Source: Fibrobacter succinogenes subsp. succinogenes S85 (GTDB lineage Bacteria; Fibrobacterota; Fibrobacteria; Fibrobacterales; Fibrobacteraceae). Taken from it: a stretch of 32,000 nucleotides of DNA. Shown here one piece after another: positions 9,915 to 32,000 of the stretch (within the stretch, counting starts at the first letter, position 1; each line of letters begins with the position of its first letter). Both the position numbers and the translations under genes were made by a program. The stretch lies in the NCBI RefSeq assembly GCF_000146505.1, contig NC_017448.1, positions 870,001 through 902,000 of the forward strand. The letters are read 5' to 3'. Under the pieces are notes generated by a model that saw only the letters and a list, made by a program, of their open reading frames with translations, was not told the DNA's origin and searched no databases.

Positions 9915-10056
9915 ATCGGCCTCCTATTTTTTTGAAGATTAACCGCAGTTGAACGCACTCGCATTCTTGCGGAACGCTACACAGTATGCAAAAGACGTGC
10001 CAAAGACAAAATCGGCGTTTTTATGCAAAATTCGGCATTTCCATTCGAATAAAAAA

Positions 10057-10151: not shown

Positions 10152-10700
10152 ATGCTTTTAAAACCGAATATGCAATGGACGGCCAACCAGGGAATCATTC
10201 ACCCAATGGTCACAGCCGAGTTTTCGCAAACGACAAACAGCGTCGTCGTCAAGTTTACCGTAGAAGAACCTTTGGACTGCTATCGCGCCGCCGTTCAAGA
10301 AGACAACGGACGCAGCTGGGAAGATTCCTGCGTGGAAATCTTTTTGCAGAATCCGGCAAACCCGGCCGAATATTTCAACTTCGAAACGACAAGCCGAGGC
10401 TTTGTACTCGCCGCCCGTGGAATTGACCGCAATAACAGACAAACGCTCCCGCTCGATACGATCGCAAAAATCAAGCGTTCAGGAACTACGCCATGCATCC
10501 AAGACGATTCCGTCTACTGGACAATGACGATTGAAATTCCTGCCGAGATTTTTGGAATTAAATCATTCCAGGCGCCACTCCGCGGAAACCTCTACAAGTG
10601 TGCCGATAAAGCAAACAAGCCCCATTACCTGAGCGCGTTCCGCATAGAAACAGAAAAACCGGACTTTCACCGTCCGGAATTCTTTCAAGTTTTAGGATAA
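10152..10700 (+). CDS. Hypothetical protein, carbohydrate-binding family 9 (CBM9/DOMON)-like
   Basis: 182 aa with no signal peptide. The stretch SWEDSCVEIFLQNP...EYFNFETTSRG resembles the D.vE.F..P....Y.EFe.n..G core of CBM9-like domains. By-eye call. Confidence 0.4.
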   Translation: MLLKPNMQWTANQGIIHPMVTAEFSQTTNSVVVKFTVEEPLDCYRAAVQEDNGRSWEDSCVEIFLQNPANPAEYFNFETTSRGFVLAARGIDRNNRQTLPLDTIAKIKRSGTTPCIQDDSVYWTMTIEIPAEIFGIKSFQAPLRGNLYKCADKANKPHYLSAFRIETEKPDFHRPEFFQVLG

Positions 10701-16396: not shown

Positions 16397-16430
16397 AAGG
16401 GTTAATTCGTTACTTTCGGCTGTAAAAATA
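16397..16430 (-). promoter_or_regulatory. Candidate promoter/leader of the fumarate hydratase gene (TATTTTTACAGCCGAAA ... TTAACCCTT)
   Basis: The coding strand reads TATTTTTACAGCCGAAAGTAACGAATTAACCCTT, ending 17 nt before the ATG. It shares TTTACAGCCG and TTAACCCT with the pgk upstream region at a comparable distance. Confidence 0.4.
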
Positions 16431-16559
16431 ATTCTTTCCATTGAAAAAGCCACCCAACTTTGTACCACTTATCCCCCAGAACCGACCGTTCATCTCCTTT
16501 TTTCACATTTTTTTTGAACTTTTTTACTTTTTCCATGACCAAAATCACAGAAGATGTAT

Positions 16560-16567
16560 TATTTTTG
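16560..16567 (+). promoter_or_regulatory. Candidate -7 promoter element TATTTTTG (Bacteroidota-type TAnnTTTG)
   Basis: Exact TAnnTTTG match 42 nt upstream of the ATG at 16609. This is inference only, by analogy with the related FCB-group phylum. Confidence 0.3.
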
Positions 16568-16608
16568 ATAACGAAACAAAAAAATTCATTTTCCAAGAGG
16601 ATTGAACG

Positions 16609-17310
16609 ATGAAAAAAATTCTGCTCGCCACGATGATTTCGGCAGCTATGGTTTTTGCAGCTCCGGCCGCAAAAAAGGTTAGCAAGGCAGCCACAGCAAA
16701 GAAGGCCGTTGCCGCCAAGGTAGAAAAAGCAGCCGAAGCACCAGCTGCAGTAGAGGCAAAGGCTGCTGAAGCCACCGCCGCTGCTCAGACCCAGGCCGCA
16801 GATGCAACAACAGCCGCTCAGGCACAGGCTACCGCAGTAGCTGATTCCGCAAAGGCTCAGGCAACTGACGCCGCTGCAGCAGCCCAGGCTCAAGCCGCAG
16901 CAACAACCGAAGCCGCCCAGGCACAGGCTACCGCAGTAGTTGATTCCGCAAAGGCTCAGGCAACTGACGCCGCTGCAGCAACGCAGGCTCAGGCAGCAGC
17001 AACCGCAGACTCCGCCCAGGCCCAGGCACAGGCAGTCGTTGACACCGCTAAGGCTCAGGCCGCTGAAGCCTCTGAAGTGCTCGAAGCCAAGACAGAAGCT
17101 CCGGTAGACTCCGCCGCTCTCGCCAAGGCCGAAGAAGAAAAGAAGGCTGCCGAAGCAGAAGCTAAGGCAAAGGCTGAAGAAGAACAGAAGGTCGCTCAGG
17201 AAACTAGCGGTACCGCTAAGTCCGCCGTCATGGACAATCCGTGGGAATTCATCGCCGTTTCTGCAGCATTCATCGCCTCTGTTCTCGTGATCATCTTCAC
17301 TGGGGACTAA
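16609..17310 (+). CDS. Alanine/glutamine-rich repeat protein with a signal peptide and a C-terminal membrane anchor
   Basis: MKKILLATMISAAMVFAAPAAKK is a signal peptide. About 150 aa are A/Q/T/K/E low-complexity helical repeats (AQAQATAV.DSAKAQATDAAAA), followed by an EEEKKAAEAEAKAKAEEEQK block and the terminal WEFIAVSAAFIASVLVIIFTGD-stop. GAGG lies ~9 nt upstream. Confidence 0.75.
   Translation: MKKILLATMISAAMVFAAPAAKKVSKAATAKKAVAAKVEKAAEAPAAVEAKAAEATAAAQTQAADATTAAQAQATAVADSAKAQATDAAAAAQAQAAATTEAAQAQATAVVDSAKAQATDAAAATQAQAAATADSAQAQAQAVVDTAKAQAAEASEVLEAKTEAPVDSAALAKAEEEKKAAEAEAKAKAEEEQKVAQETSGTAKSAVMDNPWEFIAVSAAFIASVLVIIFTGD
16807..17070 (+). repeat. Tandem ~99-bp (33-codon) coding repeat, about 2.7 units
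   Basis: The 61-nt core GGCACAGGCTACCGCAGTAG(C/T)TGATTCCGCAAAGGCTCAGGCAACTGACGCCGCTGCAGCA occurs at 16821 and 16920 with one mismatch. A third, degenerate unit starts near 17019. Confidence 0.85.
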
Positions 17311-17345
17311 TAAGCGATTCAAAGAACGCTTTTCCAAAAGTTTTG

Positions 17346-17374
17346 AGACCGCCCGCAAGGACGGTCTTTTTTTG
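17346..17374 (+). terminator. Rho-independent terminator of the Ala-rich protein gene
   Basis: AGACCGCC-cgcaa-GGaCGGTCT followed by TTTTTTT. Confidence 0.8.
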
Positions 17375-17587
17375 TAAACTTCTATATACAAATGTTTCTT
17401 ACAAATTCACCACACGATTGTTTGCGGGACAGTAAAAAAAATGAGCATTCTCTCTATATGCTACACTTATTCCCACCACTAAGAAAAATCACAAAATTAG
17501 AGTATAATTTGAGAACAAAAAAAGCTTTTCCCGTAAAACATTTTTACATAAATAATCTATTTTATCTTTTGAGAGAATATAATTAGA

Positions 17588-17634: not shown

Positions 17635-20600
17635 GTGAGTATTAAGAAGTATCTGTTAGCTTTGTGCGCTGCCACCTCTGTAATGGCAGCACAGCAGGAA
17701 CAACCGACTCCTTATGATCTGATTCGACCGACTTTCCCATTGACTTGGGATAGCACCGTATTCGATAGATTCGACACCACAGTTACGAAAAAGCACAACA
17801 TGGTGCCAAGAAACAGGACTCCGGCAGCATACGCCCCGAATGCCCTGATTCCAGACACATTGAATCAAGCCTACCTCGACGCCATCAACGTCCGCATGTC
17901 TCCTATCCGCGTTAACCAGGCAGGTTATCTGGAATCGGATCTGGAACGCCAATTCTATTACATTGGTAACGCCTCCTCCTTTGAAGTCGTTGATGTCAAC
18001 GGCAAATCTTTTAGCCCTGCTGTAATGGGCTCACTTACCCCTTCTGGTCAAAGCATTTCGTCGGACTGGACAATTATTGCAGGCACTAACGCCGCCACGA
18101 ACGACCAGAAACGCTACCAAGTTGATATCACCGGCCAAGCCGGCAAGCTCATGATCGGTCACATTCCGCAGGGCGTCCCAACCGACACGCGTCTCCGTAT
18201 CAAGGTCGGTAACGATATTTCGAGCACATTCATTATCTCCAACAAGGTTTACTCCATGGTGAAGGATGCCGCCCTCAAGTTCTACGGCATCAACCGCAGC
18301 GGTGATGGTGATTCCTGGTTCCATGCAGCAAGCCATATGAAGGATGGCGCCGGTGCTGTAGTGACGGGAGCAGAAGATGTTCGAGATCAGTATAACGCAG
18401 CTCTTGCTGGAACGTTGCAAGGTGGCTACTATGACTGTGGCGACCACTTGAAGGAATCCCAGACCCAGATGTACGCATTCATGGTTGCAGCAGTCCTTGC
18501 AGCAACAAACGCCGATGCCGACGAAGACCATTACGCATTCAACCATGGCGAAACGGTCAATACCGATGGTATGCCGGATATGTTGCGCGAAGCAAAGCAT
18601 GGAGCAGATTATGTGTTGCGAGCCTATATTCGCGCCAAGGGCGTGATTGACGACATGGCTCTTTCTGTGGGTAACTTTGGTTCTGACCACGGTTGGTGGG
18701 GCCGCCCCGAAAACAGCGACAAACTGCCTGTTGACGGATCTGCCGCAGCTACAGACCGTGGCGGTCCCATGTCGCGTACAGTGCGCCTAGGTGAAATTGG
18801 AGCAAACATCGGTGGCGAAACTGCAGCAGGCCTTGCCCTTGTGGGTAAGCTTTATTCTGAATACCCTGAACATAAGGCTTTTGCCGATAGCTGTTTGAAG
18901 GTTGCAAAGGAAATGTATGACTTTGCAAAGTCTATGGCTCAAGGCAAGGTTTATAAGAATAATACCGAAGCTGCCGGTTGGTCTTCTCCAGCCTACAACG
19001 GCAATAACGAATACTTTGACGACCTTGCGCTTGCGTCTGTTGCCCTGTGGTATGCAACTGGAGATTCGAAGTATGGCGATGATGCTATTCGTTCCAAGAC
19101 GCTTGGCACGACGGTTCCTCAGTCGTTCATGGAAAACTGCGTGGGCTGTTTCGACGGTGGCTGGTTCGTGACCGACAACAAGGGTTTCCTTAAGAATGTG
19201 AAGAACACCAGCTGGGCCAACGCCTATGCTTATGCGACCTATGCCCTTTACAAGTTGATTCTTGCTGACGAAAACAAGGCTATTAATGAATTTGGCATGA
19301 CCAAGGAAGAACGTCTCAACGCCATTGAAGACTGTATCATGAGCATGATCCATAACTTGAGCGATGTGAGCGCCGGTACGGCGACAATCACCTTGCCCCG
19401 CAAGGATCCTTCCAATTACATGGTTCAAGATATTGGCTGGAAGGGCAATGAAGTCAAGTACGACCCCATCTGGTACTCAATGCAGACGGACCAGACCTGG
19501 ATTTACAACCGTTACCAAGCGGGTAACATCTTCGAAGTTTTGGCTTATGCTGACGTAGCAAAGGATATTGAGAAGCAGAATCTTTCTCTTCCGAACTTGG
19601 GAACCCCTAACTGGAAGGCCGACGAAATGTTCCAGTTGGGTATCAACCAGCTGAACTACCTCTTGGGCGTAAACCCGTGGGATGTGTCATACATTTTGGG
19701 TATCGGCGACAAGAACGACGCCCATCCGCACCACCGCGCAGCAAACCCCGAAGGCAAGAACCAACCGGGTGCCGCTTACAAGTATAATCCGCCTGTAGGA
19801 GCACTTTATGGCGGCGTGACTCCGGGAACGACGAACTCCATGGTTCCTGACAACAAGAGCTGGGAAGACTACCACAAATCTGAAACCTGTATCGATGCTG
19901 CCGCAACGCTCGTCAGTTCGGGTATGATAGCTTCGGCCAAGTTTGACCGTACGGCCGCACCGGACATTAGCGTAGAAATCCGCCATGTGAGCATGGACTC
20001 GGCGATTGTCATGATTAAGCTCACTCAGCGCGGCACAACCGTCATTTCTTACGGCACAACTGAAGGCCAGTACACTCTAAACGCAGTAGACTCTGTTGCC
20101 GGGATCCAACACGAAATGGTTTTGCGAGGTCTCACCCCAGGTACGACCTACTACTTCTACGTTACCGGTTCCAACGCTTACAAGCCAGAGAACTCAAAGA
20201 CAAAGTTCCTCGTGGATAGCACGCAGACTCCGTTCACATTCACGACACTCAGCACCATCGAAAACGCAAACATCGCAAACGTTACCGTCTGTAACGTCAG
20301 TGCCGACAGCGCCGAAATCATGTGGTACACCCCGAACGGAGAATACGAATCCAAGATCTACTGGGATACAATTCCGCACTCCAAGGCCGAAGAATTTGCA
20401 TTCAATACAGGAACGGGAAATGCAGACGTGTCCGGCATTCCGACCCAGTTCCACTACGTAAAGATTGGCGGACTTAAAGAAAAGACGACCTACTATTTTA
20501 TGGTCGAAAGTAACGGCGTACAGACTAATGTCGACGACAAGGGCAACCTCCTCAAGTTCACGACGCCTGTCGGCTGGTACGATTTCTCAGTCCGCGCCTA

Positions 20601-23600
20601 TCAATACGAATTTGGAGGAACGGAATTCCTAAATCTCAACATTTACAATAACGAAGCACGCGCATTCGACAGCCTTACTTTGCGCATGTACTTCAGTGCA
20701 AAGCCCGAAGAAGTAGAAAAGTGCGCCACGTTGATAGACTCCGACATCTGCCAAGCTTACGACGAAGCAGGCTTCAACAAGCCCTGCGAAAACGACCGCG
20801 AACTCCGTGACTTGATGCGTGCCGCATTACCGGTCCGTTTGGACGACACATACAATCCGACAACAGGTAAGTACGCTTACTACTTCCCAGTGCCGCTGGG
20901 TTCCTCGATTATCAAGTCCCAGTCTCGTCTGCGTGTTGATTTGACCTATTCTTCGGGTATTAGCAATGATGGCTACAAGACTTGCGAAACTCTTCGTGCT
21001 CCGGCCAAGAAGCACATGGACAAGACTACAGGAGACTGGTCTTGGGCTCCGCACGAATTCCTCGTCGATGGCGCAGACTATGATGGCATGCCTCAAGAAG
21101 ACAAAGACTACGGCGACCTTGACAACGATATCCCGGTAAACCCCTATATTGTCGTTTATCGTAAAAACGAATTTATTTGGGGTTTCAGCCCTTCCAAGAG
21201 CGAAATGGAAACCAAGAAAGCAAACTACCAGATGGACGTGACATTTGACCCTCCGTTCAACGTCTCCAACGGTTCCCATATCGACATTGACCAGACTAGC
21301 AGCACCGTCCATGTGACTGGTTACGCTCACATCACTGAAGGTGGCTACGTTACAAAGATTTGGGCTAACGGCGTACAGATCAGCGGCGAAGCATTTGCTG
21401 ACGGTACCGACAGATGGCTCTTGAACGAAGCTGGTACAGAAATTATCGCCAAGTACAATATGACCACCGACATGTGGGACCTCGATATTCCGGTCAAGAT
21501 GGGTATCGGAAGCAACAAAATTGACATCACCATCTTTGCAGGCCCGAACCCCACATGTGAAAAATGCTCCGAAGGCGGTGGCTGCGCATTTGAGAACAGA
21601 AACTACTATATCAACTTCTCCAAGGGCGATGCTACAGCCTCGACACTTGTCATCAAGGATGCTGCAGGCAATCCGATTACAAGCCCTGCAAATACCGATG
21701 GCACAGTATTCTTTATTGACTTGATGGACAAGGATAAGATCAAGGGCAACGTGCAGACGCTCGAAGTCCAGGTTCTCAACAACAAGAAGAACGATGTCCT
21801 CAAGGTCACCTTAACGGCAGACGCCGCCAATCCGGGTCACTTTGTCGGTGGACCGATTACAGCAGTCAGCCACTCCAAGGAAACTAGAAACGCAGCTTCC
21901 GAGATTTCGTTCTTTGCAGGCGACACCATCCAGGTTGTCTATACCGACCCGGATGACGAAGACGATGTTTCCAAGCAGACGTTCTACGCTGAATCCAAGG
22001 TTCCGTCTCCGCAGACCGTTCTCGCCGAAGACAGCAACTGCGACAACAAGGCCGACCAGCTTAGAATCGTTTTCACGAACAAGCTCAGCGCCGATTACCC
22101 GCTGGATAGCATCAGGTACTTTATCGAAGGCATGAGCGATACGGTCAGCGTTCCGCTTGTCGCAGCAAACTATACAGACAAGAACGAAATCCTCATCGCT
22201 CTTGACACAAGCCTCATTCCGACCAATGCAAATCCGTCCGGAAAGATTACGACTTACGTCGCCGACCGCGGTGTCGCAAACGCCGAAAGCGCAAAAATTA
22301 CCGATGGCATCCTCCCCACTCTCGTGAGCGTGTCCATCCTCGAGAAATCGGACAACGACGATAGCGGTCTCGATACCGTCATGATAGCCTTCTCGGAACC
22401 GGTCATCTTCTCGAACATGAACGAATGGCCGCTCGTGATTGCAGGTACAACTAGCGCACCGACTCTCGCGGCAGCCCCGACGACAACGAACAACGGCAAG
22501 AGCTGGCAATTGATTATCAGCGGAAACGTGAACAATTCGCTTGTACCGATTGGAGCTTTGGCTAGTGCAAGAACGACTGGCGGATTTACGATTACCGACC
22601 AGAACTTCAACCAGATTAACCCGGCCGGCTGTAACCCGAGCGTCCCAGTAACGCTTATTTCTCGCCCGGTCCCGGTCTACCATGCCGATATGATCGACAA
22701 GGAAGGCGACGGTGTTCCGGATGTGGTTTACATCGTATTCGAAAGAAAGCTCAAGCCGAAGGATGTCTTCGACAGCATCGTAACAGTCTGGGGAAACCCG
22801 GGCATTACACGCTCGTTCATCACGACAGCAGATACGACCGGAGGCGTCATTGTGCCGAAGGAAAGCTACTGGACTATCCGCGATACGGTTTCGGCTCCGT
22901 TCACGATACAGATTGATTCTGTTACGACAAAGGATTCCGTCAACACCTATAGCATTATCGAAATCACTATTCCGGCAACACACGCCTATCCGTATGGTTC
23001 AACAAGTGGCGATAGAGATGGTAACGGAACCGTTTCCCCGCTCAAGGGTGCTGCAAACGGCTTCTTTGAAACGAACTACACGCTGTACGACAAGTGCGCA
23101 CCGGTCATTTCGACCGCCCGTATGATCAAGAACGGATTGCTTACCGTCAACATCTCGGAACCGGTAACGGTCCTCGATGCAGGCAAGTACATCCAGCGTG
23201 AACGCGATGAATTCATCCCGTCTCAGGCACCTCAGGGAATGGGCAAGAGCTTCCTCTTCACCTACAACGAGAAGGATAACGTATTCCACGCCGGAGACCG
23301 CGTCCGCCTCGTTCCAAACATTCTCGGTTCTGCTTACGTCGACAAGAACAGCAACACTCCGACTATAGCAAATCCCTACGTCCGTATCACGGGTGACGAC
23401 AACATCCGCTTCTCTGTAACGCTTTCGAAGCCGGTGTCCACACCGAAGGCTGGCGCTTACATGGGTCGCCCGGAAAGCGTCTCCAACGATGCATTCGTAA
23501 CATCCGCAGTCATCAACGGCAAGCACAACTTCATCAACGGAGACGGAACCGTCATCGGTCAGGTAGACACCGCAGCCTACTTTGGCTCGGGCCCGAACTT

Positions 23601-24024
23601 CGAAATTGAAGTGATGATGCCTTCTGCAAGCTTCACGACACACGAAGGCTTGCCGATGTACAACTTCCATCTGAAGATTGTGACGGACCTTTACGACAAC
23701 CTCGGACAGTACATCAATACCTACAAGCTCGATATTCCGAGCGAAAAGTTCCAGTCGATGCGAAACCTCATCGACAACGGAACTCTCAAGCTCAACATGG
23801 AATGGGCCGCCAAGGATAACGAAGCTCCGGTCGCCAAGAAGGGTAACAAGATTGGCACAGGCGCTTACATCGCGAAGTTTGACTTCACTGCGGAATCCTA
23901 CTGCGCTGCTAAATTCGATGAATCGAGCAACGATTACAAGGCCAAGTGTACAGAAATCGGTGCCAGGGCAGAAAAGGCTTCTGACAGCAAGACCAAGACT
24001 CTCGGTTTCAAGAGAAGAAAGTAA
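17635..24024 (+). CDS. Giant multi-module GH9 family glycoside hydrolase / surface protein (2129 aa)
   Basis: ORF 17602..24024. I prefer the GTG at 17635 (AAGGAG 6 nt upstream), giving the signal peptide VSIKKYLLALCAATSVMAAQQ. Modules in order: CelD_N-like Ig (IRVNQAGYL); GH9 catalytic (GGYYDCGDHLKESQ, NPWDVSYILGIGDKNDAHPHHRAANP, YHKSETCIDAAA); two FN3 (GLTPGTTYYFYV, GLKEKTTYYFMV); a CBM3-like beta-sandwich; about 950 aa of Ig-like modules; and a C-terminal IVTDLYDNLGQYIN...GTGAYIAKF...KTLGFKRRK. Confidence 0.9.
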   Translation: MSIKKYLLALCAATSVMAAQQEQPTPYDLIRPTFPLTWDSTVFDRFDTTVTKKHNMVPRNRTPAAYAPNALIPDTLNQAYLDAINVRMSPIRVNQAGYLESDLERQFYYIGNASSFEVVDVNGKSFSPAVMGSLTPSGQSISSDWTIIAGTNAATNDQKRYQVDITGQAGKLMIGHIPQGVPTDTRLRIKVGNDISSTFIISNKVYSMVKDAALKFYGINRSGDGDSWFHAASHMKDGAGAVVTGAEDVRDQYNAALAGTLQGGYYDCGDHLKESQTQMYAFMVAAVLAATNADADEDHYAFNHGETVNTDGMPDMLREAKHGADYVLRAYIRAKGVIDDMALSVGNFGSDHGWWGRPENSDKLPVDGSAAATDRGGPMSRTVRLGEIGANIGGETAAGLALVGKLYSEYPEHKAFADSCLKVAKEMYDFAKSMAQGKVYKNNTEAAGWSSPAYNGNNEYFDDLALASVALWYATGDSKYGDDAIRSKTLGTTVPQSFMENCVGCFDGGWFVTDNKGFLKNVKNTSWANAYAYATYALYKLILADENKAINEFGMTKEERLNAIEDCIMSMIHNLSDVSAGTATITLPRKDPSNYMVQDIGWKGNEVKYDPIWYSMQTDQTWIYNRYQAGNIFEVLAYADVAKDIEKQNLSLPNLGTPNWKADEMFQLGINQLNYLLGVNPWDVSYILGIGDKNDAHPHHRAANPEGKNQPGAAYKYNPPVGALYGGVTPGTTNSMVPDNKSWEDYHKSETCIDAAATLVSSGMIASAKFDRTAAPDISVEIRHVSMDSAIVMIKLTQRGTTVISYGTTEGQYTLNAVDSVAGIQHEMVLRGLTPGTTYYFYVTGSNAYKPENSKTKFLVDSTQTPFTFTTLSTIENANIANVTVCNVSADSAEIMWYTPNGEYESKIYWDTIPHSKAEEFAFNTGTGNADVSGIPTQFHYVKIGGLKEKTTYYFMVESNGVQTNVDDKGNLLKFTTPVGWYDFSVRAYQYEFGGTEFLNLNIYNNEARAFDSLTLRMYFSAKPEEVEKCATLIDSDICQAYDEAGFNKPCENDRELRDLMRAALPVRLDDTYNPTTGKYAYYFPVPLGSSIIKSQSRLRVDLTYSSGISNDGYKTCETLRAPAKKHMDKTTGDWSWAPHEFLVDGADYDGMPQEDKDYGDLDNDIPVNPYIVVYRKNEFIWGFSPSKSEMETKKANYQMDVTFDPPFNVSNGSHIDIDQTSSTVHVTGYAHITEGGYVTKIWANGVQISGEAFADGTDRWLLNEAGTEIIAKYNMTTDMWDLDIPVKMGIGSNKIDITIFAGPNPTCEKCSEGGGCAFENRNYYINFSKGDATASTLVIKDAAGNPITSPANTDGTVFFIDLMDKDKIKGNVQTLEVQVLNNKKNDVLKVTLTADAANPGHFVGGPITAVSHSKETRNAASEISFFAGDTIQVVYTDPDDEDDVSKQTFYAESKVPSPQTVLAEDSNCDNKADQLRIVFTNKLSADYPLDSIRYFIEGMSDTVSVPLVAANYTDKNEILIALDTSLIPTNANPSGKITTYVADRGVANAESAKITDGILPTLVSVSILEKSDNDDSGLDTVMIAFSEPVIFSNMNEWPLVIAGTTSAPTLAAAPTTTNNGKSWQLIISGNVNNSLVPIGALASARTTGGFTITDQNFNQINPAGCNPSVPVTLISRPVPVYHADMIDKEGDGVPDVVYIVFERKLKPKDVFDSIVTVWGNPGITRSFITTADTTGGVIVPKESYWTIRDTVSAPFTIQIDSVTTKDSVNTYSIIEITIPATHAYPYGSTSGDRDGNGTVSPLKGAANGFFETNYTLYDKCAPVISTARMIKNGLLTVNISEPVTVLDAGKYIQRERDEFIPSQAPQGMGKSFLFTYNEKDNVFHAGDRVRLVPNILGSAYVDKNSNTPTIANPYVRITGDDNIRFSVTLSKPVSTPKAGAYMGRPESVSNDAFVTSAVINGKHNFINGDGTVIGQVDTAAYFGSGPNFEIEVMMPSASFTTHEGLPMYNFHLKIVTDLYDNLGQYINTYKLDIPSEKFQSMRNLIDNGTLKLNMEWAAKDNEAPVAKKGNKIGTGAYIAKFDFTAESYCAAKFDESSNDYKAKCTEIGARAEKASDSKTKTLGFKRRK
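18244..19935 (+). other. GH9 catalytic domain of giant protein 1 (approximate)
   Basis: DCGD carries the two catalytic Asp of the GH9 DAGD motif. The HHR motif and the acid Glu in SETCID are present. The domain is ~560 aa, so it carries insertions relative to the ~450-aa typical GH9 barrel. Confidence 0.8.
19957..20568 (+). other. Two tandem FN3-like modules of giant protein 1
   Basis: ISVEIRHVSMDSAIVMIKL...YGTTEGQY...LRGLTPGTTYYFYVTG and NVTVCNVSADSAEIMWYT...IYWDT...KIGGLKEKTTYYFMVES. Confidence 0.7.
23665..24024 (+). other. Shared C-terminal module (copy 2 of 3)
   Basis: FHLKIVTDLYDNLGQYINTY ... LKLNMEWAAKDNEAPVAKKGNKIGTGAYIAKFDF ... KTKTLGFKRRK-end. Confidence 0.55.
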
Positions 24025-24037
24025 TTATAAACAGGCA

Positions 24038-24077
24038 GCCACCAGGATCTAGCCATCCTGGCGGCTTCTTTATTTTT
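24038..24077 (+). terminator. Rho-independent terminator between the two giant GH9 genes
   Basis: GCCACCAGGAT-ctagcc-ATCCTGGCGGC (11-bp stem with one A:C mismatch) followed by TTCTTTATTTTT. It ends 20 nt before the next start codon. Confidence 0.7.
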
Positions 24078-24097
24078 GGGATAAAATAAGAGAAAAT

Positions 24098-27000
24098 ATG
24101 AAAAGATTACTCAGCATTGTTTCTTTACTGGCTATGTTCTGCATGGATTATGCAGAGGCAGAACTACCGAACATAGACAGAACATGTACCACCTGTAGCC
24201 GACGCTATTTGGACTCGTTGAACGTCTACAACAGACGCCCAATCCGAATGAACCAAAGCGGATTTAGACCGCAAGACTACAAGTACGCCTATGTCGCCGA
24301 TCCAAAGGAAATGACATTCAAGGTCATTGATGCAAACAGTGGTAAGGAAGTTCCGGGTGGCGGAAACCTCTCGCTTATCAAGAAAGGCGCTACAAAGCCA
24401 AACATCTGGATCAATGGTGCATTCAACTCAATGGAAAGCATTTATGAGTTTGGTAAACAAGACTCCATCAGCACAGAAAAGGAAGACCTGTACCGAGCCG
24501 ATTTTACGACGCTTTCGACAACGGGCGAATACTTCCTTGTCGTGGGCAAAGACACTTCGGCCACATTCCATGTACACCCATCCATCTACAACTCCATCCT
24601 CGAGAACTCCTTGCAGTTCTTCGGGATTCAACGCTGCGGTAACACAGATTCGCACTTCCACAAGCCCTGCCACTTGAAAGACGGCTCCAAAGTCGGACAT
24701 GACTTGACGGGCGGTTGGCATGACTGTGGTGACCATTTCAAGGTTTCTGAAACTCTTGGCTATACCGCCTACGTGCTTTCGATGGTTTACCTTACCTACC
24801 CCAACAAGGCTGAAGACCGCTATGGTCATTCTTATGCAGACACAGTCTTTACAGACGGTATCCCGGATATTCTCTACGAAGCAAAAATCGGTGCCGATTA
24901 CATACTCAAGCTTTACAAGGCCTCCAAAGAAGATGGATTGATTGCCCAAAATGACATGTACCATTCCGTGGGCGTTGACGAAAAGGACCACTCATTCTGG
25001 GACTTGCCGGAACGTCAGGACGCTCAGCCAGAATCTAAGGGCGGTCCAGACCGCGTTGTGCTCACAGGCATTGGCGCAAACACTTCGGGTATGTTTGTTG
25101 CAGCCCTTGCAAACGTCGCTGCCGGCTATCGCGTTTACGACCCAGCCTATTCTGATACGCTCATCGAAGCAGCAAAAGACATCTACAAGAACGTGATGAT
25201 GCCGCTCTTTGACTATGGTAACGGAAACGAAATGGGAAAGACGACATCATTCCCTGGATTCTATACCGGTGGCGGTCCGCGTTATGACGATGGTGCGGCA
25301 GCTGCACTCGCCTTGTGGTACGCCACTAAGGACACGACCTACCGCTATGACCTTTACAAGAACACCAACATTTTCAACAACCCCACCAACTCTAGATTCA
25401 ACCTGGACTACTTCAAGGCTGGATTCCTCGGCAACGAAAGTGGCTTTTCTCCTGGCGGCTGGGCAACTGACTACCAGAACATCCACACCTATGTGCTGTT
25501 CGCATTCCAGAACCTGATTTTGAAGAGCTCGGAAACAGCGGCCGAATTCGGTCTTACAGAAATCGAACGCGACTCCCTCTCGATGCGTACGATGGCAACA
25601 TTCCGCAAAATTTTGAATGACGCCACAAACCAGGGTGACTCTACCGTTCTCGTCAATCCGGGGGTAAACTCCAACGAAAAAAGCGAAGCTCATGAAGGTC
25701 CGACAGACCTCAAGGTCATTACTCCCTACAACCTTGTATGGACTAGCTTTGACTGGGGCGTGATCCGCTACAACCTGGGTACAGCCGTTTCCATCTTCTT
25801 GATGTACGAACTCACGAAGGACGAACGCTATTTGAAAGTCGCTCTTGACAACATGTACTACGCCCTTGGCGCTAACCCGTGGGATATTTCCCTCTTGATG
25901 GGCGCAGGTGACAAGAACCCGCAACACCCGCACAACCGTTCTGCAAACCCCGATGGCTTCAATACCGGTGGCATGCCTTACCAGTACCGCTGCCCGAAGG
26001 GTGCTCTCATGGGTGGCCGCGATCCAGAAAAAACACTTATCGAAGACTGGAGCAAATACACCTCTACCGAAACATGTATTGACTTCTCGGCACAGTTCCT
26101 CTTCCCGGCACAGAGCCTTGCAGAAACGCTCCCGCCTGATAACGAAGGCCCGATTTTTAGCAACATCGTCGGAACGCCGATTACAGATTCTACCGCTATC
26201 GTAAGCTGGGACGCAAACGAAGTCGCCCTTGTTACGGTTTTCTACGACGTAGTCCCCAATTCTGCCAATCCGAAATCAGTGCAGCAGACCACAGCCTCTA
26301 AGGGCGGTTCTGTAACGCTTACCGGACTCATTCCTGGACAGACATATTACTTCTTCCTCGAAGGCATGGACACCAAGAGAAACATCACGACTGATGACAA
26401 CCATGGTTATTGGTACTCCTTTACCATGACTCCCAAAATGACTGAAATCAAGGGAGTTACGATTTGCCAGGTCGACCATCGCAGTGCAAAGATTTACTGG
26501 TGGAGCACCGACCGTCTGAACGGCGTCGTCAACTACGGAAAGGCCAAGGGTGCCTACACTGAAACCCAAAATGCAAGTGGCAGCGCAGTCCTTTTCCACG
26601 AAGCCGAGCTCACAGGACTTGAAGCCGGTACGACCTATTACTTTACCGTTTCCTCGGGCGCAAAGACTTCTGAAGAATACTCATTTACCACAGAAAACCA
26701 CGCCACCTACGCTGACCTCGATATTTCTTTGAAGCCGAGTTCTTACGGTGGAGAAGCCGCCTGTAGCCAATGGCAAGATTGCCATGCCTTCATCATGTCG
26801 CTTTCAAACAACGACACCGTACCATTCGAAGACTTTGAAGTGCGTATGTACCTCAAGGATCAAAACCTCTCCGCACTCGGAAACTGCCACCAAAACTTCG
26901 GAGGCGACGGTCAAATGGGTAAGCCGATTAACGTTACTTTCGGAACCGCTCAGGCAGACGGTTTTGGAGGCTATTATCTCCCCATTAACGTCAAAGGCAA

Positions 27001-29953
27001 ACTAGAAGTTTCTGGACAGCTGATTATCCAAATTATTTTCCACAACTACGATCCTAATGTAAAGACAGTGAAATTCAGCGACATAGATAATTCCTGGTCA
27101 CTCCGCGCACACACCGAAGAAACCGATCCAGAACATTTTGAAGGCATTGACTTGACTCAAGCTCCTTACTTCAAGGGTTCTGAAACGACATTCCTCGAAT
27201 ACAATTCCAGGGGTGAAAAAGTTGTCGCCTTTACCCGTGACCCCTATATTACCGTCTATTACCACGGCAAGCACATCTATGGTTACGGTCCGGACTACAC
27301 ACCTGAAAATGGGCCGCAAGTCAAACGCACCATCGAAACAACGTTCACAAGCCCGTTCGTAAGCCCAAGATATTCTGTTGAAAAGGAAGATCCGCTCACA
27401 ACATACGCCGCCACAAGTAAGGTTACGCCAACGGGTGTCCTCGATGCCGTCGAAATGAACAGCAACCCGTATAAGTTTGACTACCCCAACCCCAACCGCA
27501 CCGACTCTATCGCCTTCGGTACAGATACAACTCTCGTCTACGGCAACAACTACATGGAATGGGTCACCTGGCACAACAGAAATGCCAACCAGAAGACCGA
27601 AAACAAGTATGACTGCGCATGCGCCGTGGTCCGTAGCAACGTTGAAATCGACAGTATCACGAAACCGCTCGAAAAACGTTATCTCACCTTTGACAAGTTG
27701 CAAATTGAAGGCTACAAGGACAAGTTCATCGAAGTGCAGATATCACTCCTCGACAGCAGCCTGGCTGTTATCAAGGATGAAAAGAACCTGAACGTTGAGC
27801 TTGTTAGCGATGATCCGAACGTTCAATTCTACACAGATCCAACAGCAACAATTCCTGTAACAACAATCACACTCTACGATGGCGTAGCAACAATCTACGT
27901 AAGCTCCAAGGTCGCCGTAACGACAAACATCTACGCAACGCACGGCAATACCGCAGACTACGCCTATACACCCGCGACAGCGGTTCTCAATATCGCTGAA
28001 CTCCCGCCATGGCCGATTATCGATGTGGCAAAGATTGTAGACCTCAACTGCGACCATATTCCTGATGCCATGGATATCACGCTATCCTCAGAATACGCAG
28101 AAAATCAGTCATTCACTTCAATTTCGTTCACCTATGGGGACAAGACTTACACCTCCGACAAGGTAAAATCCCTGAACGGCAAATCCCTCGTTGTAGAAAT
28201 CAATGTTCCTCAAGAAATCGTAACGAATGCCACAGGCAAGATTACTCTTACCAGCAACATTCAAGGCACCACCAAGACGGTAGACGACTCCTACGGAGAT
28301 GGCATTGCCCCGGCACTGCTCTCGGCAACGGTTCTTGAACGCCAGGATACATCTACAACCGACCACGTCTACCTGCAATTCAGCGAACCGATTTCCGCTC
28401 CTGGCACAATCTTCCCGCTGATTCTCTACGGTACGGACGGTGTAACTTTGGCAGCAACTCCAACCGTTCTTTCAGCTAAGCTCTACAACGAAGCCAAGAA
28501 CATCTGGGATTTCGAAATTTCGTTTGGCGCAGGAAACGTCTCGCTCGTCACTGCAGGCATGTGGGGACAGCTGAATCCGGCAGGAACGATCACAGACTTG
28601 AACGGTAACGGCGTTGCAGGTCTCTGCACTCCGGAAAAGGTTGAAATTCTCCTGAAGATTTTGCCTGTTCCAATGACTTACGCTGTCATCACAGACAAGC
28701 TGCAAAACGGTTATGCAAGCCACGTGGACGTGACTTTTGCAAAGGCACTCGACGAAAAGCATACACCGGAAAAGTTGGAAATCATCTTCGGTATTGCAAA
28801 GCCCGAAACGCTCACTGTGGAAAAAGGCAAGTTTACGCTTATCGGCGAAAACCTCTCCATTGACCTCGAGAAACCCTTCCAGTTCGGCAATACCGCCGGT
28901 AACTACGAAGGCACAACTCCGGGCGGAAAGATGCTTAGCCATGCAGGGCTTGTCACGCAGTATCTCGGAACAGGCGCAGCAACCGAAACTAACGAAATTC
29001 TCGCAGAAGACAAGGTCGGTCCGGTATTCGTGTCGGCTAAAATCAACCAGACGAACACAACCGATATCGTAACCATTACCGCGAGCGAGCCTCTCATCAT
29101 CGCCGATTCCTCTCAGCAGCTCTATAGACACAAGCGCTCCGACAAGCAGTCCAACGTGTTCACAAGCGGAGTTTCTAGCTGGAACTTCGTCCCGAATAAC
29201 AACTCGCTTACGCTCCTTTACAATGGCGACCTCATGGGTCAAGTCATGGAAGGCGACTACGTGAGAATGGGCTCCATGATGACAAGCGTATTCAAGGATG
29301 CCAACGGCAACTATCCTGAATTTGAAGTTCCCTGGGTCCTTGTCAACGGCAATGGCGCTCCGAGAATCAAGTTCGATGTCAAGCTGCGTGAAATCGTCAC
29401 GGATTTGACCCCGAGCAACCGCACCAAGATTGATGTCAACGAAACAATGCGATTCTACATCAAGAATCCGTCAACGAACAAGTTCGACCTCATCCAGAAC
29501 GGCAAAATTACGCTTGCAGGCATTGACTCTGCCGATATTGGCGGTGCCATCTTTGATGCAAAGCTCACTGTGCCGCGTGGCGTATCGATGGCTGACGAAT
29601 GCGCATGGGAAAATCTCCTTGTCAAGTTCAAAATCCCGATTTACTCAAATCTTGGAAACTTTGTCAACAGATTCCACAACTCCTTCAATGTGGATCCCAA
29701 GCTCTACCTCTCGCCCAACAACCAGGTGGAATTCGCCATTGAATGGGCTAACAAGGCTCCGTCTGGAATCCGTAGCAAGGACGATAGGGCTGTTGGCACC
29801 GGCGCATACATCTACAAGGCCGAAATTGAAGCTATATTCTCACCGAACATGAATATACCCGAAGTCAAGAACGATGCCAAGATAATCCAGAACTTCTCGT
29901 CGAAGACTTCGTTTGATCAGACAAAGACATTCGGTATAAAGAGGACTAAATAA
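24098..29953 (+). CDS. Giant multi-module GH9 family glycoside hydrolase / surface protein (1951 aa), paralogue of the upstream gene
   Basis: Signal peptide MKRLLSIVSLLAMFCMDYAEA. Modules in order: CelD_N-like Ig (IRMNQSGFRP); GH9 (GGWHDCGDHFKVSE, NPWDISLLMGAGDKNPQHPHNRSANP, YTSTETCIDFSAQ); two FN3 (GLIPGQTYYFFL, GLEAGTTYYFTV); a CBM3-like segment; Ig-like modules; and a C-terminal IPIYSNLGNFVN...GTGAYIYKAEI...KTFGIKRTK. Confidence 0.9.
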   Translation: MKRLLSIVSLLAMFCMDYAEAELPNIDRTCTTCSRRYLDSLNVYNRRPIRMNQSGFRPQDYKYAYVADPKEMTFKVIDANSGKEVPGGGNLSLIKKGATKPNIWINGAFNSMESIYEFGKQDSISTEKEDLYRADFTTLSTTGEYFLVVGKDTSATFHVHPSIYNSILENSLQFFGIQRCGNTDSHFHKPCHLKDGSKVGHDLTGGWHDCGDHFKVSETLGYTAYVLSMVYLTYPNKAEDRYGHSYADTVFTDGIPDILYEAKIGADYILKLYKASKEDGLIAQNDMYHSVGVDEKDHSFWDLPERQDAQPESKGGPDRVVLTGIGANTSGMFVAALANVAAGYRVYDPAYSDTLIEAAKDIYKNVMMPLFDYGNGNEMGKTTSFPGFYTGGGPRYDDGAAAALALWYATKDTTYRYDLYKNTNIFNNPTNSRFNLDYFKAGFLGNESGFSPGGWATDYQNIHTYVLFAFQNLILKSSETAAEFGLTEIERDSLSMRTMATFRKILNDATNQGDSTVLVNPGVNSNEKSEAHEGPTDLKVITPYNLVWTSFDWGVIRYNLGTAVSIFLMYELTKDERYLKVALDNMYYALGANPWDISLLMGAGDKNPQHPHNRSANPDGFNTGGMPYQYRCPKGALMGGRDPEKTLIEDWSKYTSTETCIDFSAQFLFPAQSLAETLPPDNEGPIFSNIVGTPITDSTAIVSWDANEVALVTVFYDVVPNSANPKSVQQTTASKGGSVTLTGLIPGQTYYFFLEGMDTKRNITTDDNHGYWYSFTMTPKMTEIKGVTICQVDHRSAKIYWWSTDRLNGVVNYGKAKGAYTETQNASGSAVLFHEAELTGLEAGTTYYFTVSSGAKTSEEYSFTTENHATYADLDISLKPSSYGGEAACSQWQDCHAFIMSLSNNDTVPFEDFEVRMYLKDQNLSALGNCHQNFGGDGQMGKPINVTFGTAQADGFGGYYLPINVKGKLEVSGQLIIQIIFHNYDPNVKTVKFSDIDNSWSLRAHTEETDPEHFEGIDLTQAPYFKGSETTFLEYNSRGEKVVAFTRDPYITVYYHGKHIYGYGPDYTPENGPQVKRTIETTFTSPFVSPRYSVEKEDPLTTYAATSKVTPTGVLDAVEMNSNPYKFDYPNPNRTDSIAFGTDTTLVYGNNYMEWVTWHNRNANQKTENKYDCACAVVRSNVEIDSITKPLEKRYLTFDKLQIEGYKDKFIEVQISLLDSSLAVIKDEKNLNVELVSDDPNVQFYTDPTATIPVTTITLYDGVATIYVSSKVAVTTNIYATHGNTADYAYTPATAVLNIAELPPWPIIDVAKIVDLNCDHIPDAMDITLSSEYAENQSFTSISFTYGDKTYTSDKVKSLNGKSLVVEINVPQEIVTNATGKITLTSNIQGTTKTVDDSYGDGIAPALLSATVLERQDTSTTDHVYLQFSEPISAPGTIFPLILYGTDGVTLAATPTVLSAKLYNEAKNIWDFEISFGAGNVSLVTAGMWGQLNPAGTITDLNGNGVAGLCTPEKVEILLKILPVPMTYAVITDKLQNGYASHVDVTFAKALDEKHTPEKLEIIFGIAKPETLTVEKGKFTLIGENLSIDLEKPFQFGNTAGNYEGTTPGGKMLSHAGLVTQYLGTGAATETNEILAEDKVGPVFVSAKINQTNTTDIVTITASEPLIIADSSQQLYRHKRSDKQSNVFTSGVSSWNFVPNNNSLTLLYNGDLMGQVMEGDYVRMGSMMTSVFKDANGNYPEFEVPWVLVNGNGAPRIKFDVKLREIVTDLTPSNRTKIDVNETMRFYIKNPSTNKFDLIQNGKITLAGIDSADIGGAIFDAKLTVPRGVSMADECAWENLLVKFKIPIYSNLGNFVNRFHNSFNVDPKLYLSPNNQVEFAIEWANKAPSGIRSKDDRAVGTGAYIYKAEIEAIFSPNMNIPEVKNDAKIIQNFSSKTSFDQTKTFGIKRTK
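24575..26122 (+). other. GH9 catalytic domain of giant protein 2 (approximate)
   Basis: DCGD and the acid Glu are retained. The HHR motif reads HNR (second His replaced by Asn). Confidence 0.75.
26144..26695 (+). other. Two tandem FN3-like modules of giant protein 2
   Basis: GTPITDSTAIVSWDANE...LTGLIPGQTYYFFLEG and VTICQVDHRSAKIYWWST...NYGKAKGAY...LTGLEAGTTYYFTVSS. Confidence 0.7.
29618..29953 (+). other. Shared C-terminal module (copy 3 of 3)
   Basis: LVKFKIPIYSNLGNFVNRF ... VEFAIEWANKAPSGIRSKDDRAVGTGAYIYKAEI ... TKTFGIKRTK-end. Confidence 0.55.
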
Positions 29954-29977: not shown

Positions 29978-32000
29978 ATGCAAGAGAGTCTATTTACAAA
30001 CTCACCTTATGTTATTGCGCTAACCGTTGTTGCATTAATCATCGTATGCTATTTTCCCATCATGCTTGGACAAAAGACGTCAGTCAAGCAGCTCCCCAGA
30101 TCCATACACCAGCTGGTGATTATCAGCATATTCTGGCAAGCGAGCAACTTGATTGGCGACATCTTTTTTAGCGGTGACAATTTTATTGCAGGCACAAAAG
30201 CCTATACGGCAAGGCAGCTCATATTCTGCACATCTGCCCTTGGTTGGATCCAGCTTGGAAACGCGATACAGCACACCGCCGAAATCAGCCTCAAGATAAA
30301 GAGGAAGAACGGCTGGAAGCTCATGAATATATTCGGAGCGCTGGCAATTCTGCTTTCGACTTATGCATTCATCAAGGATCCAAGTTACATTCCCGACATG
30401 AATTTCTTTGGATACAGACCTTTTGCCGAAAGGCCTGTATTCCACTTTTATACATTGCTGTTCTGCCTTTTTGTAGTCCCCAATATCATCGTGACGGGCT
30501 ACATCATGCTCCGCAATATCGTGCATTCTAGCGATACGACACTCCCCCACCAGGTAAGCATATACATGTTGACCTCGTTCGTGTTTTTTGTAACGCTAGC
30601 AGCGCTTTTTGACTTTATCATCCCCATTTCAACAAAGTTCAACAATTACGACCAGTTCCTCAAATGGTCGCAGTTCATCTCCGTATTCCTCGCCGTTCTT
30701 TCCGGACAATACTTCACGTCCGTTTCATTCAAGAACAAGAGTGCTTCCTGGTTCTTGGACAAGCTAAAGGACAGGATGGTCGACGGAATCATCTATTACA
30801 ACTACAAAGGTGAAATCCAGCTGGCAAACCCGGCTGCACTAAGCATTTTGCACACCACCCAAGAGGCGCTCCACAACAAGAAAATCACGTCCATATTTCC
30901 GCAGATTCAAGACCCGGCACGCGAATCAACTTACAACAAAATAAGAATCAAGATTGACAACGAAGACCATATTTTCAACGTCTCGATTTTTGAAATTCGC
31001 CAGTCGTTGACAACAAACTACAATGCGGCATTCTTTAGCGATGTTTCAAACACGCTTCATTACCAGCAGATTATCAAAAACCGCGATGAACAGTTCAAGG
31101 AATACCAGCTTGACCAGATCCGTTATCAGGAACGTCTGAACATTTGGAAAAAGAAGGTCGACGAAAGCAAGTACTTCCTGGACACGCTAATCAGTACGCT
31201 CCCCTTCCGTTTCTGGTCCAAGAACGAACAGGGCGTATTCATGACGCAGAACCAGAACGACATCAAGAACCGCGGAAACCTGCTACAGACATCCGAACCG
31301 GACAACAAGATTTTGCCACAGGAACTTCTAGCTCGTAACGAAGGCGAACCGCAGAGTTTCATTTCTTACGAACGAATTAAAAAGACGCTCAACGAAAATA
31401 ACGAAGAAGAAGAAGATATCGAAATTTTGAAACAGGACGACTACAACATGGCCGTCCGCAAAGGGGTTGCCAAGGATATCATGATTTTCAACAACATGTT
31501 CATCCCCATCATGGCCCCGCGCAAGCCGTACAAAATAATCGGTATCAAAATTGACATTACCAAGGAAATGCGTCTTGAGAAAGAACGCGACATGCTGCAA
31601 GAACAGAAGCACATCCACTCGAGGCTCGAAGAACTTGGCACCATCTGCGGTGGCTTCGCCCACGACTACAACAACATTCTCGGTTCACAAATCGGGTTCT
31701 GCGATCTCGCCCTTGAAGTGCTCGACAAGGATAACCAAGCTTACATGTTCATCCAGGAAGCACGCAAGGCGGCCACACGCGGCAAGGAATCGCTCGAGGA
31801 ACTCCTGAACACCATCCGCGGAAAGACTTCCGAGAAGGACAAGCTCACGGAATTTGCACCGTACATGATTATTGACGACGTGGTGAAGAAGCTCTGGATT
31901 ACGCTCCCGCCGAACGTGAAAGTCAAGGCCGAAAAACTAGACAAGAACATCCGCATCGTCGGAAACGTCTCGGCACTTGACCGCATTATCAGCAACCTCG
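29978..32000 (+). CDS. Sensor histidine kinase (7TM N-terminal domain, two PAS-like domains, HisKA), 3'-truncated by the window end
   Basis: This ORF is absent from the supplied track because it has no stop in the window. I translated it by hand from the ATG at 29978 and found it open to 32000. It has seven hydrophobic segments in the first ~245 aa, PAS-like segments (DGIIYYNYKGEIQLANPAALSIL; LISTLPFRFWSKNEQGVFMTQN), the H-box LGTICGGFAHDYNNILGSQIGFCDLAL, and the approach to the N-box (LDRIISNL) at the edge. Confidence 0.85.
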   Translation, partial: MQESLFTNSPYVIALTVVALIIVCYFPIMLGQKTSVKQLPRSIHQLVIISIFWQASNLIGDIFFSGDNFIAGTKAYTARQLIFCTSALGWIQLGNAIQHTAEISLKIKRKNGWKLMNIFGALAILLSTYAFIKDPSYIPDMNFFGYRPFAERPVFHFYTLLFCLFVVPNIIVTGYIMLRNIVHSSDTTLPHQVSIYMLTSFVFFVTLAALFDFIIPISTKFNNYDQFLKWSQFISVFLAVLSGQYFTSVSFKNKSASWFLDKLKDRMVDGIIYYNYKGEIQLANPAALSILHTTQEALHNKKITSIFPQIQDPARESTYNKIRIKIDNEDHIFNVSIFEIRQSLTTNYNAAFFSDVSNTLHYQQIIKNRDEQFKEYQLDQIRYQERLNIWKKKVDESKYFLDTLISTLPFRFWSKNEQGVFMTQNQNDIKNRGNLLQTSEPDNKILPQELLARNEGEPQSFISYERIKKTLNENNEEEEDIEILKQDDYNMAVRKGVAKDIMIFNNMFIPIMAPRKPYKIIGIKIDITKEMRLEKERDMLQEQKHIHSRLEELGTICGGFAHDYNNILGSQIGFCDLALEVLDKDNQAYMFIQEARKAATRGKESLEELLNTIRGKTSEKDKLTEFAPYMIIDDVVKKLWITLPPNVKVKAEKLDKNIRIVGNVSALDRIISNL

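Follow-up and report, generated by a model that had tools for sequence, protein, structure and literature searches.

Giant tandem GH9 proteins of Fibrobacter succinogenes S85: modular anatomy, conservation and a probable role as secreted beta-1,4-glucanases

A 32,000-nucleotide stretch of the Fibrobacter succinogenes S85 genome (NC_017448.1, positions 870,001-902,000, forward strand) contains two adjacent genes for giant proteins with a glycoside hydrolase family 9 (GH9) domain, which we call A (FSU_0809/Fisuc_0393) and B (FSU_0810/Fisuc_0394). This whole stretch is referred to below as the window, and all coordinates are window positions. Our analysis suggests, with a probability that we put at roughly 0.6, that A and B are secreted, catalytically competent and anciently duplicated giant GH9 beta-1,4-glucanases restricted to the Fibrobacterota. 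The identity, architecture, catalytic residue conservation, fold similarities and synteny of the pair come from the present analysis, and expression and localisation are taken from the literature. The genes are real and already catalogued rather than overlooked; they have been tabulated in genome, transcriptome and proteome papers, yet without a reported activity, and it is their architecture and function that were not described in the literature searched. There is still debate over the way in which Fibrobacter, lacking both cellulosomes and classical exocellulases, dissolves crystalline cellulose. Of its carbohydrate-active enzyme (CAZyme) genes, FSU_0809 is one of the most highly and steadily expressed, and its product is reported to bind cellulose in a passage of Burnet 2015 that cites Jun 2007, yet tables list it as 'GH9' only. 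To the remaining ~1350 residues we can assign two FN3 modules, a cryptic module with a predicted fold of carbohydrate-binding module (CBM) family 3, an immunoglobulin (Ig)-like stalk and a putative diverged secretion-type tail. This does not by itself explain the cellulose mechanism.

Both gene products match public proteins exactly (A, ACX74005/ADL25215/A7UG57; B, ACX74006/ADL25291/C9RL59). Gene A starts with GTG, and an AAGGAG lies 6 nt upstream of it. By BLASTP the two proteins align in two parts, over ~980 residues at the N-terminal end (29% identity, E 3e-86) and over ~700 residues at the C-terminal end (25% identity, E 2e-30). A preliminary description, made from the letters of the window, had proposed two co-oriented, adjacent giant GH9 open reading frames (ORFs) in a Fibrobacter, and this was borne out by the ORF calls, the exact public matches and the recovery of GH9 by Pfam in both proteins, the organism being F. 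succinogenes S85. The module order that it gave (signal peptide, Ig-like region, GH9, two FN3 modules, CBM3-like sandwich, Ig-like string and C-terminal module) holds in the Pfam searches, the A-B alignment and the structure models. It had also counted 19 matching residues out of 30 between two catalytic blocks; both blocks were found and the count is correct.

The case for catalysis begins with the GH9 domains, which PF00759 recovered in A and B with 184.8 and 234.9 bits, respectively, against a cutoff of 27.7. Among 37 family members, 36-37 share the catalytic residues of A (D267, D270 and E750), and the DCGD motif (267-270) and the Glu of ETCID (E750) in A line up with the catalytic motifs of Cel9M. 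B contains DCGD at 209-212, HPHNR at 610-614 and the catalytic Glu inside TSTETCID (655-662). Moreover, both paralogue clades have an HxHxR block that does not vary anywhere in the phylum. Judged by this conservation, the GH9 domains of A and B are probably catalytically competent. The closest solved structure to the domain of B is Cel9M (E 5.4e-32). The nearest solved GH9s are endoglucanase types (Cel9M, Cel9G and E4), all of them distant, and CbhA is more distant. A reading of the pair as CbhA-like cellobiohydrolases was rejected, since the catalytic domains resemble GH9 of the endoglucanase type more closely than CbhA.

Two features of the catalytic domains deserve separate mention. C268 of A (18436-18438) adjoins the catalytic Asp in DCGD, and C752 (19888-19890) lies two residues past the catalytic Glu (ETC). 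The same two Cys columns occur in B, and the pair is present together in every Fibrobacterales member examined; the Chitinispirillales have C/G or A/S at these columns, never both Cys. C268 and C752 may form an active-site disulfide or thiol pair. The second feature concerns the GH9 signature, which reads HPHNR in 8/8 B-type sequences (window 25925-25939 in B) and HPHHR in all other family members, a substitution that may reflect functional divergence of the paralogues.

On the N-terminal side of the catalytic domain, CelD_N is above the Pfam threshold in B (E 1.4e-8); no CelD_N match was found by Pfam in A, which nevertheless aligns with B across that stretch. The signal peptide of A comprises residues 1-19 according to Raut 2019 (PMC6851124), and Burnet 2015 scored it 'NO'. 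On the C-terminal side, the paired FN3 modules were detected with fn3 (30.8 and 28.9 bits, cutoff 25) and with Pur_ac_phosph_N (50.1 and 49.6 bits, cutoff 30).

Past the second FN3 module, no Pfam or NCBIfam family covers any part of A or B, in agreement with the earlier estimate that more than 1100 residues per protein lack an assignable family. AlphaFold models of A residues 955-1480 (m479e61cedc81, mean pLDDT 76) and 1481-2129 (m98668c91a752, mean pLDDT 77) were searched with Foldseek, and the region past residue ~1000 was predicted to consist of a CBM3-like module, here called the X module, and an Ig-like string. The best single-domain matches to the X module were CBM3a/CBM3b (4b9f_A, TMt 0.70; 1nbc_A, 0.68; 4jo5, 0.63; 4b96, 0.59), at a probability of 1.0; the model has a pLDDT of ~65-86 in this module, with one ~40-residue loop of low confidence. 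At the sequence level, Pfam, with E values up to 10 allowed, returned nothing for the X module of A, of B and of 10 other members of the family, the family profile had 0 matches to PDB sequences at E up to 1, and hhalign against a manually entered CipA CBM3a sequence gave a probability of 1.3%. On the predicted model, the X module would be CBM3-like by fold and not a CBM3 family member by sequence, so that the 'CBM3-like sandwich' of the preliminary description stands as a predicted fold and is matched by no sequence model. Motifs that we take to be those of CBM3 (N…L.LRYY; DWS; VY.nG.lvWG.eP) occur in the X module in the same order, which is a lead and not a test. The divergent copy in B retains the invariant columns N, Y, P, W, H, G, Y, G and P.

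A profile of the X module found only 113 matches among 1.84 billion representative proteins. Ten smaller proteins with the module were scanned, and GH9 was present in 6, GH9 or FN3 in 7 and no Pfam domain in 3; the giants in the match list carry GH9 too. In Fibrobacter enzymes of ~1070 residues (P0086-P0088) the X module directly follows GH9, and it was found once alongside a Fib_succ_major domain. By these profile searches, the X module is rare and linked to GH9.

The remainder of the models is dominated by Ig-like domains. What had been described as ~250 residues of Ig-like sequence and four Ig-like modules amounts, in the models, to a string of about seven beta-sandwiches, and the 'C-terminal module with a basic tail' to one more beta-sandwich and a ~125-residue domain resembling FlgD_ig and the C-terminal domain (CTD) of type IX secretion system (T9SS) substrates. 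For the stalk, Foldseek gave generic Ig-string matches only (S-layer SbsC, alpha2-macroglobulin/C3 and PorU), and BLASTP self-comparison revealed no internal repeats. In B, the first ~240 residues of the stalk have no detectable similarity to A, and the remainder is 25% identical to A 1466-2000. The models are consistent with the anatomy of enzyme, binding module and stalk that had been put forward. We also noted a conserved Cys cluster, C-x2-C-x5-GC (A ~1308-1317, window ~21556-21585, within …FAGPNPTCEKCSEGGGCAF…), which sits between the first two stalk domains and whose Cys are invariant or nearly so family-wide.

The homologue search returned 59 matches, limited to the Fibrobacterales and Chitinispirillales (Fibrobacterota). 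The family is collinear over its full length; the second FN3 module and some stretches of the X module equal the catalytic core in conservation. Cellulolytic Fibrobacterota of habitats ranging from the rumen to soda lakes have kept the family. In a neighbour-joining tree, A-type and B-type sequences form separate clades that each span the genus, so the duplication, as dated by this topology, is old. This bears out the earlier view of an old duplication and not a recent copy. Synteny was examined at 77 genome loci. B follows A in 47/62 informative loci, and a kinase homologue lies directly after B in 43/45 (at least 40% identity in 35 of these), with a gap of 5-30 nt in most loci and 24 nt in S85. 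The pair and the kinase are thus kept across Fibrobacter. Ten loci (L001, L002, L005, L007, L014, L017, L022, L024, L026 and L076) hold three giants in tandem, the extra copy being A-type, recently duplicated and placed upstream of A and B, and an F. intestinalis-like clade has lone A-type genes. Outside the genus a single giant gene is present and lacks a neighbouring kinase; that of the cellulotroph ANBcel5 is two genes away from a gene for a GH94 phosphorylase. Loci L046, L053, L054 and L055 are filed as Eggerthellaceae, Senegalimassilia, Sodaliphilus and Methanomethylophilaceae bins yet carry Fibrobacter-type giants, probably as a result of binning contamination.

The last ~100-125 residues align family-wide, with G, W and Y invariant. 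Among 18 Chitinispirillales-type orthologue tails, FlgD_ig matches 12, CHU_C 11, PorU/PorZ models 8 and Por_Secre_tail 2, and a PDB search with the profile of these tails retrieved FlgD (E 2e-4) and, at E 0.015, the PorU tail. Fibrobacter-type tails bear an insertion of ~30 residues ahead of the last basic strand, and their profile aligns with the Chitinispirillales-type profile in hhalign (95.9%, E 6.4e-9); against the PDB it found nothing relevant. In addition, a shorter relative, P0113, has the architecture GH9-FN3-FN3-X-Por_Secre_tail. From the profile link to the Chitinispirillales tails and the Por_Secre_tail of P0113, the tail of A and B would be a diverged T9SS-type sorting domain, and the machinery of this system is present in the genome according to Raut 2019 (PMC6851124). 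Elsewhere in the window, a GH54-type alpha-L-arabinofuranosidase with a CBM6 (12195-13925, +) has a tail (…YSVYDVLGNRV…GGIYVIKTNSKTIRISNTK) that resembles sorting domains of the T9SS/Fpm-1 kind; at E up to 0.001 it was matched by no model, and hhalign of the Fibrobacter tail profile against it was not significant.

Several results weigh against A and B being secreted, active glucanases of this kind. Their tails match no NCBIfam or T9SS model (TIGR04183/PF18962 or related) at E up to 10, and both the basic terminal domain (BTD) and the T9SS signal are given as 'na' for FSU_0809/FSU_0810 by Raut 2019 (PMC6851124). Three peptides of the same study fall inside the A tail, namely NLIDNGTLK (2044-2052), IGTGAYIAK (2073-2081) and AKCTEIGARAEK (2103-2114, weak), which argues that a sorting domain is not quantitatively cleaved; they could stem from precursors, and so lower the claim of cleavage and do not exclude it. 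The CBM3 assignment rests on a model of medium confidence, Pfam, the PDB profile search and hhalign against CBM3a all having failed. The GH9 domain of A is distant from characterised enzymes (E 1e-18), so the substrate might be another beta-glucan. The activity of neither protein is recorded in Suen 2011 (PMC3079729), where both genes are listed as GH9 cellulases with activity not confirmed, or in Raut 2019. Finally, FSU_0809 is slightly less abundant on cellulose (-1.2 fold), and FSU_0810 is unchanged (Raut 2019). With these values, the idea that the pair is a piece of the 'missing machinery' of cellulose degradation remains speculation.

Both proteins were detected in the published envelope proteome (Raut 2019) and in the extracellular fraction (Burnet 2015). 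The envelope peptides also cover the GH9 domain, X module and stalk of FSU_0809, and since peptides occur along its whole length, the full-length protein exists. Both proteins are significantly enriched in the extracellular medium fraction, in which Fisuc_0393 is ~6-fold more abundant than in the outer membrane (Burnet 2015), a distribution that lends no support to the 'surface-tethered' state given in the preliminary description. Expression was found to be high but constitutive. In the Neumann 2018 supplement, A, B, the kinase, a receiver and a sigma-54 regulator (mean rlog 12.10, 10.25, 8.81, 11.04 and 10.77, respectively) all belong to the constitutive cluster across substrates (cellulose, cellobiose and glucose) and growth rates; the coefficient of variation of rlog is 1.5-3.2% for A and B, and Fisuc_0393, at 1.5%, is above the 90th percentile.

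These data also bear on the idea that A and B are mainly cellulose adhesins or surface-coat proteins, in which GH9 chiefly binds or is weakly active. FSU_0809 was earlier identified as an outer-membrane carbohydrate-binding protein, as the relevant passage of Burnet 2015 states with reference to Jun 2007, and constitutive expression with no cellulose induction, the lack of an activity on record (Suen 2011; Raut 2019) and the presence of S-layer proteins and adhesins among the Foldseek matches of the stalk would all suit such a role. However, neither the Asp/Asp/Glu triad nor the HxHxR block varies in either clade, which argues for selection on catalysis, and the protein is commoner in the medium than in the outer membrane. 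We therefore consider an adhesin role unlikely.

Alternatively, the target might not be crystalline cellulose but another beta-glucan, for instance xyloglucan, mixed-linkage glucan or cello-oligosaccharides set free at the surface. This seems quite improbable to us: members of the family are found in cellulotrophs (near GH94 in ANBcel5), a CBM3-like fold is predicted for the accessory module and cellulose binding has been reported for FSU_0809 in the same passage of Burnet 2015, although the GH9 domains are deep-branching and have ~110 extra residues relative to the Pfam model, GH9 includes xyloglucanases (BoGH9A being among the weak matches) and the proteins are not cellulose-induced.

The genes downstream of B raise the question of regulation. 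The kinase has a multi-pass membrane region and a PAS domain as its sensor, with no large extracytoplasmic domain evident, and is followed beyond the window by co-directional genes for a receiver and an NtrC-type sigma-54 activator (Fisuc_0397). A regulatory role for this kinase system was proposed by Suen 2011 (PMC3079729). In its full form, the proposal would make the pair and the two-component system one regulatory unit, with the kinase sensing a GH9-linked product or state and the sigma-54 regulator controlling expression. The position of the kinase directly after B at a short distance in nearly all informative loci, and the shared direction of the kinase, receiver and regulator genes in S85, are as expected of such a unit, and the kept synteny suggests some functional link between pair and kinase. 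Nevertheless, we doubt that the unit exists in this form, since a search that tolerated up to 2 mismatches found no sigma-54 -24/-12 element upstream of either gene of the pair, all five genes are constitutive, the sensor has no evident extracytoplasmic ligand-binding domain and relatives outside the genus have no adjacent kinase. Substrate-responsive control of A and B is thus not supported. Furthermore, a hairpin with a U-run lies between A and B and is likely to be an intrinsic terminator or attenuator. With constitutive expression, this hairpin, the missing sigma-54 promoter and the sensor topology, the 'dedicated' kinase of the preliminary description is not borne out.

For the reading that we favour, of A and B as secreted beta-1,4-glucanases, we infer the substrate, export route, spacer role and operon structure as follows. 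The proteins would be exported by Sec with a signal peptide at the N-terminus and would cross the outer membrane probably by the type IX pathway, through the diverged FlgD_ig/CTD-type domain at the C-terminus. The Ig-GH9-FN3-FN3-CBM3-like head would be the working part, with the CBM3-like module holding the enzyme on cellulose, and the ~800-residue Ig-like string would act as a spacer, extending the head away from the place, wherever this may be, at which the C-terminus is held. A would be transcribed mostly alone and at a higher level, in keeping with the transcript levels above, and B probably shares a transcript with the genes for the kinase, receiver and sigma-54 regulator, as the A-B hairpin and the 24-nt gap between B and the kinase suggest. 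A and B would then be constitutive first-contact enzymes and not cellulose-induced ones. A bolder extension, which we regard as a long shot, is that the giant GH9 family is the conserved catalytic core by which Fibrobacterota attack cellulose in a non-cellulosomal way, surface- or vesicle-borne and processive by means of a hitherto unclassified GH9-specific cellulose-binding module, and that in Fibrobacter it has divided into two paralogues that cooperate, with the neighbouring kinase/sigma-54 system monitoring their export or load. If this were true, the X module would merit a CBM family to itself or a place as a distant subfamily of CBM3.

The closest parallel to the head is CbhA of C./Acetivibrio thermocellum, whose architecture we take to be Ig-like, GH9, two FN3-like X1 modules and CBM3, the same order as in A and B. 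The Ig-GH9 structure of CbhA (1ut9/1rq5) was among the matches to B, and the NCBIfam match of B to CelK, a relative of CbhA, was far below its cutoff. Unlike CbhA, A and B have no CBM4 and no dockerin but an Ig-like stalk of ~800 residues and a CTD-like tail, their catalytic domains are nearer Cel9M (E 5e-32) than CbhA (E 2.7e-13), and their CBM3-like module is not recognisable by sequence. Theme-B enzymes with a fused CBM3c (T. fusca Cel9A/E4 and C. cellulolyticum Cel9G) likewise combine GH9 with an accessory module of CBM3 fold, and in the ~1070-residue Fibrobacter relatives the X module follows GH9 as directly as CBM3c does. The catalytic domains of E4 and Cel9G belong to the closest solved ones; however, A and B have two FN3 modules between GH9 and X, and X has no sequence similarity to CBM3c.

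Within F. succinogenes, the BTD/Fpm-1 cellulases (such as FSU_2914 and FSU_2361/2362) have a signal peptide and a basic C-terminal domain proposed as T9SS signal (Raut 2019, PMC6851124), and FSU_2361/2362 are a tandem GH9 pair like A and B (Suen 2011). These cellulases have 600-900 residues, a measured activity and cellulose-induced expression, whereas A and B have ~2000 residues and constitutive expression, and neither a BTD nor a T9SS signal is listed for them. Large secreted GH9/GH5 enzymes with a terminal T9SS domain are also described in PMC5831590 for Bacteroidota, within the FCB superphylum (Ca. Paraporphyromonas polyenzymogenes; Cytophaga hutchinsonii, CHU_C). The orthologue tails examined here match CHU_C and Por_Secre_tail, but the A and B tails match no T9SS model directly, have the ~30-residue insertion and are still detected as peptides, and the family is confined to the Fibrobacterota. 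Set against these systems, A and B appear as a Fibrobacterota-specific variant of secreted multi-modular GH9 cellulases in which the dockerin is replaced by an Ig-like stalk and a diverged sorting domain. The coordinates of all parts are collected in Table 1.

Table 1. Positions of genes A and B, their modules and the adjoining elements in the window.
Feature	Position	Strand	Basis
Gene A, FSU_0809/Fisuc_0393, giant GH9 protein, 2129 aa	17635..24024	+	public protein identical
A predicted Sec signal peptide (MSIKKYLLALCAATSVMAAQQ)	17635..17697	+	read off translation
A N-terminal Ig-like region, counterpart of B CelD_N	17857..18234	+	aligns with B residues 32-160
A GH9 catalytic domain with insertions, aa 206-760	18250..19914	+	Pfam E 4.7e-54
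A two FN3 modules, aa ~775-975	19957..20559	+	Pur_ac_phosph_N 50.1 bits in two stretches; fn3 30.8 bits
A X module, CBM3-like, aa 984-1190	20584..21204	+	predicted fold
A stalk, about seven Ig-like beta-sandwich domains, aa ~1199-2000	21229..23634	+	secondary structure of two AlphaFold models
A C-terminal FlgD_ig/T9SS-CTD-like domain with insertion, basic end …KTKTLGFKRRK	23647..24021	+	alignment with orthologue tails
Hairpin and U-run between A and B	24037..24077	+	12-bp stem, 7 GC pairs; minimum free energy -22 kcal/mol, z -3.16
Gene B, FSU_0810/Fisuc_0394, paralogue of A, 1951 aa	24098..29953	+	public protein identical
B GH9 catalytic domain, aa 164-669	24587..26104	+	Pfam E 3e-69
B two FN3 modules, aa ~689-865	26162..26692	+	Pfam
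B X module, divergent copy, aa 877-1075	26726..27322	+	17% identity to A in alignment
B Ig-like stalk	27323..29575	+	BLASTP against A; Big_1 match weak, E 0.004
B C-terminal CTD-like domain, end …KTFGIKRTK	29576..29950	+	tail alignment, profile comparison
Histidine kinase Fisuc_0395, full length 792 aa, truncated at window end	29978..32000	+	multi-pass membrane region, PAS, HATPase_c

Other parts of the window yielded a few minor observations. The only exact sigma-54 match in it, a perfect -24/-12 consensus (TGGCACGTCTTTTGCA) at 9987-10002 (-), precedes an unrelated gene, a SpoVG homologue (9914-9582, -), by 73 nt, and a sigma-54 activator such as Fisuc_0397 might act there. A gene for a stand-alone CBM9_2 protein of 182 residues (10152-10700, +; E 8.9e-36) is flanked by the SpoVG gene and a homologue of acyl-ACP thioesterase. 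A 329-residue minus-strand ORF (16402-17391) was rejected as the neighbour of A, being the shadow of Fisuc_0392 (16609-17310, +). The latter, directly upstream of A, encodes 233 residues with a signal peptide, Ala/Gln/Thr-rich repeats of ~33 residues and a C-terminal hydrophobic helix; it matches no Pfam family, is highly expressed (rlog 11.6) and is followed by a hairpin and T-run of its own at ~17347-17375.

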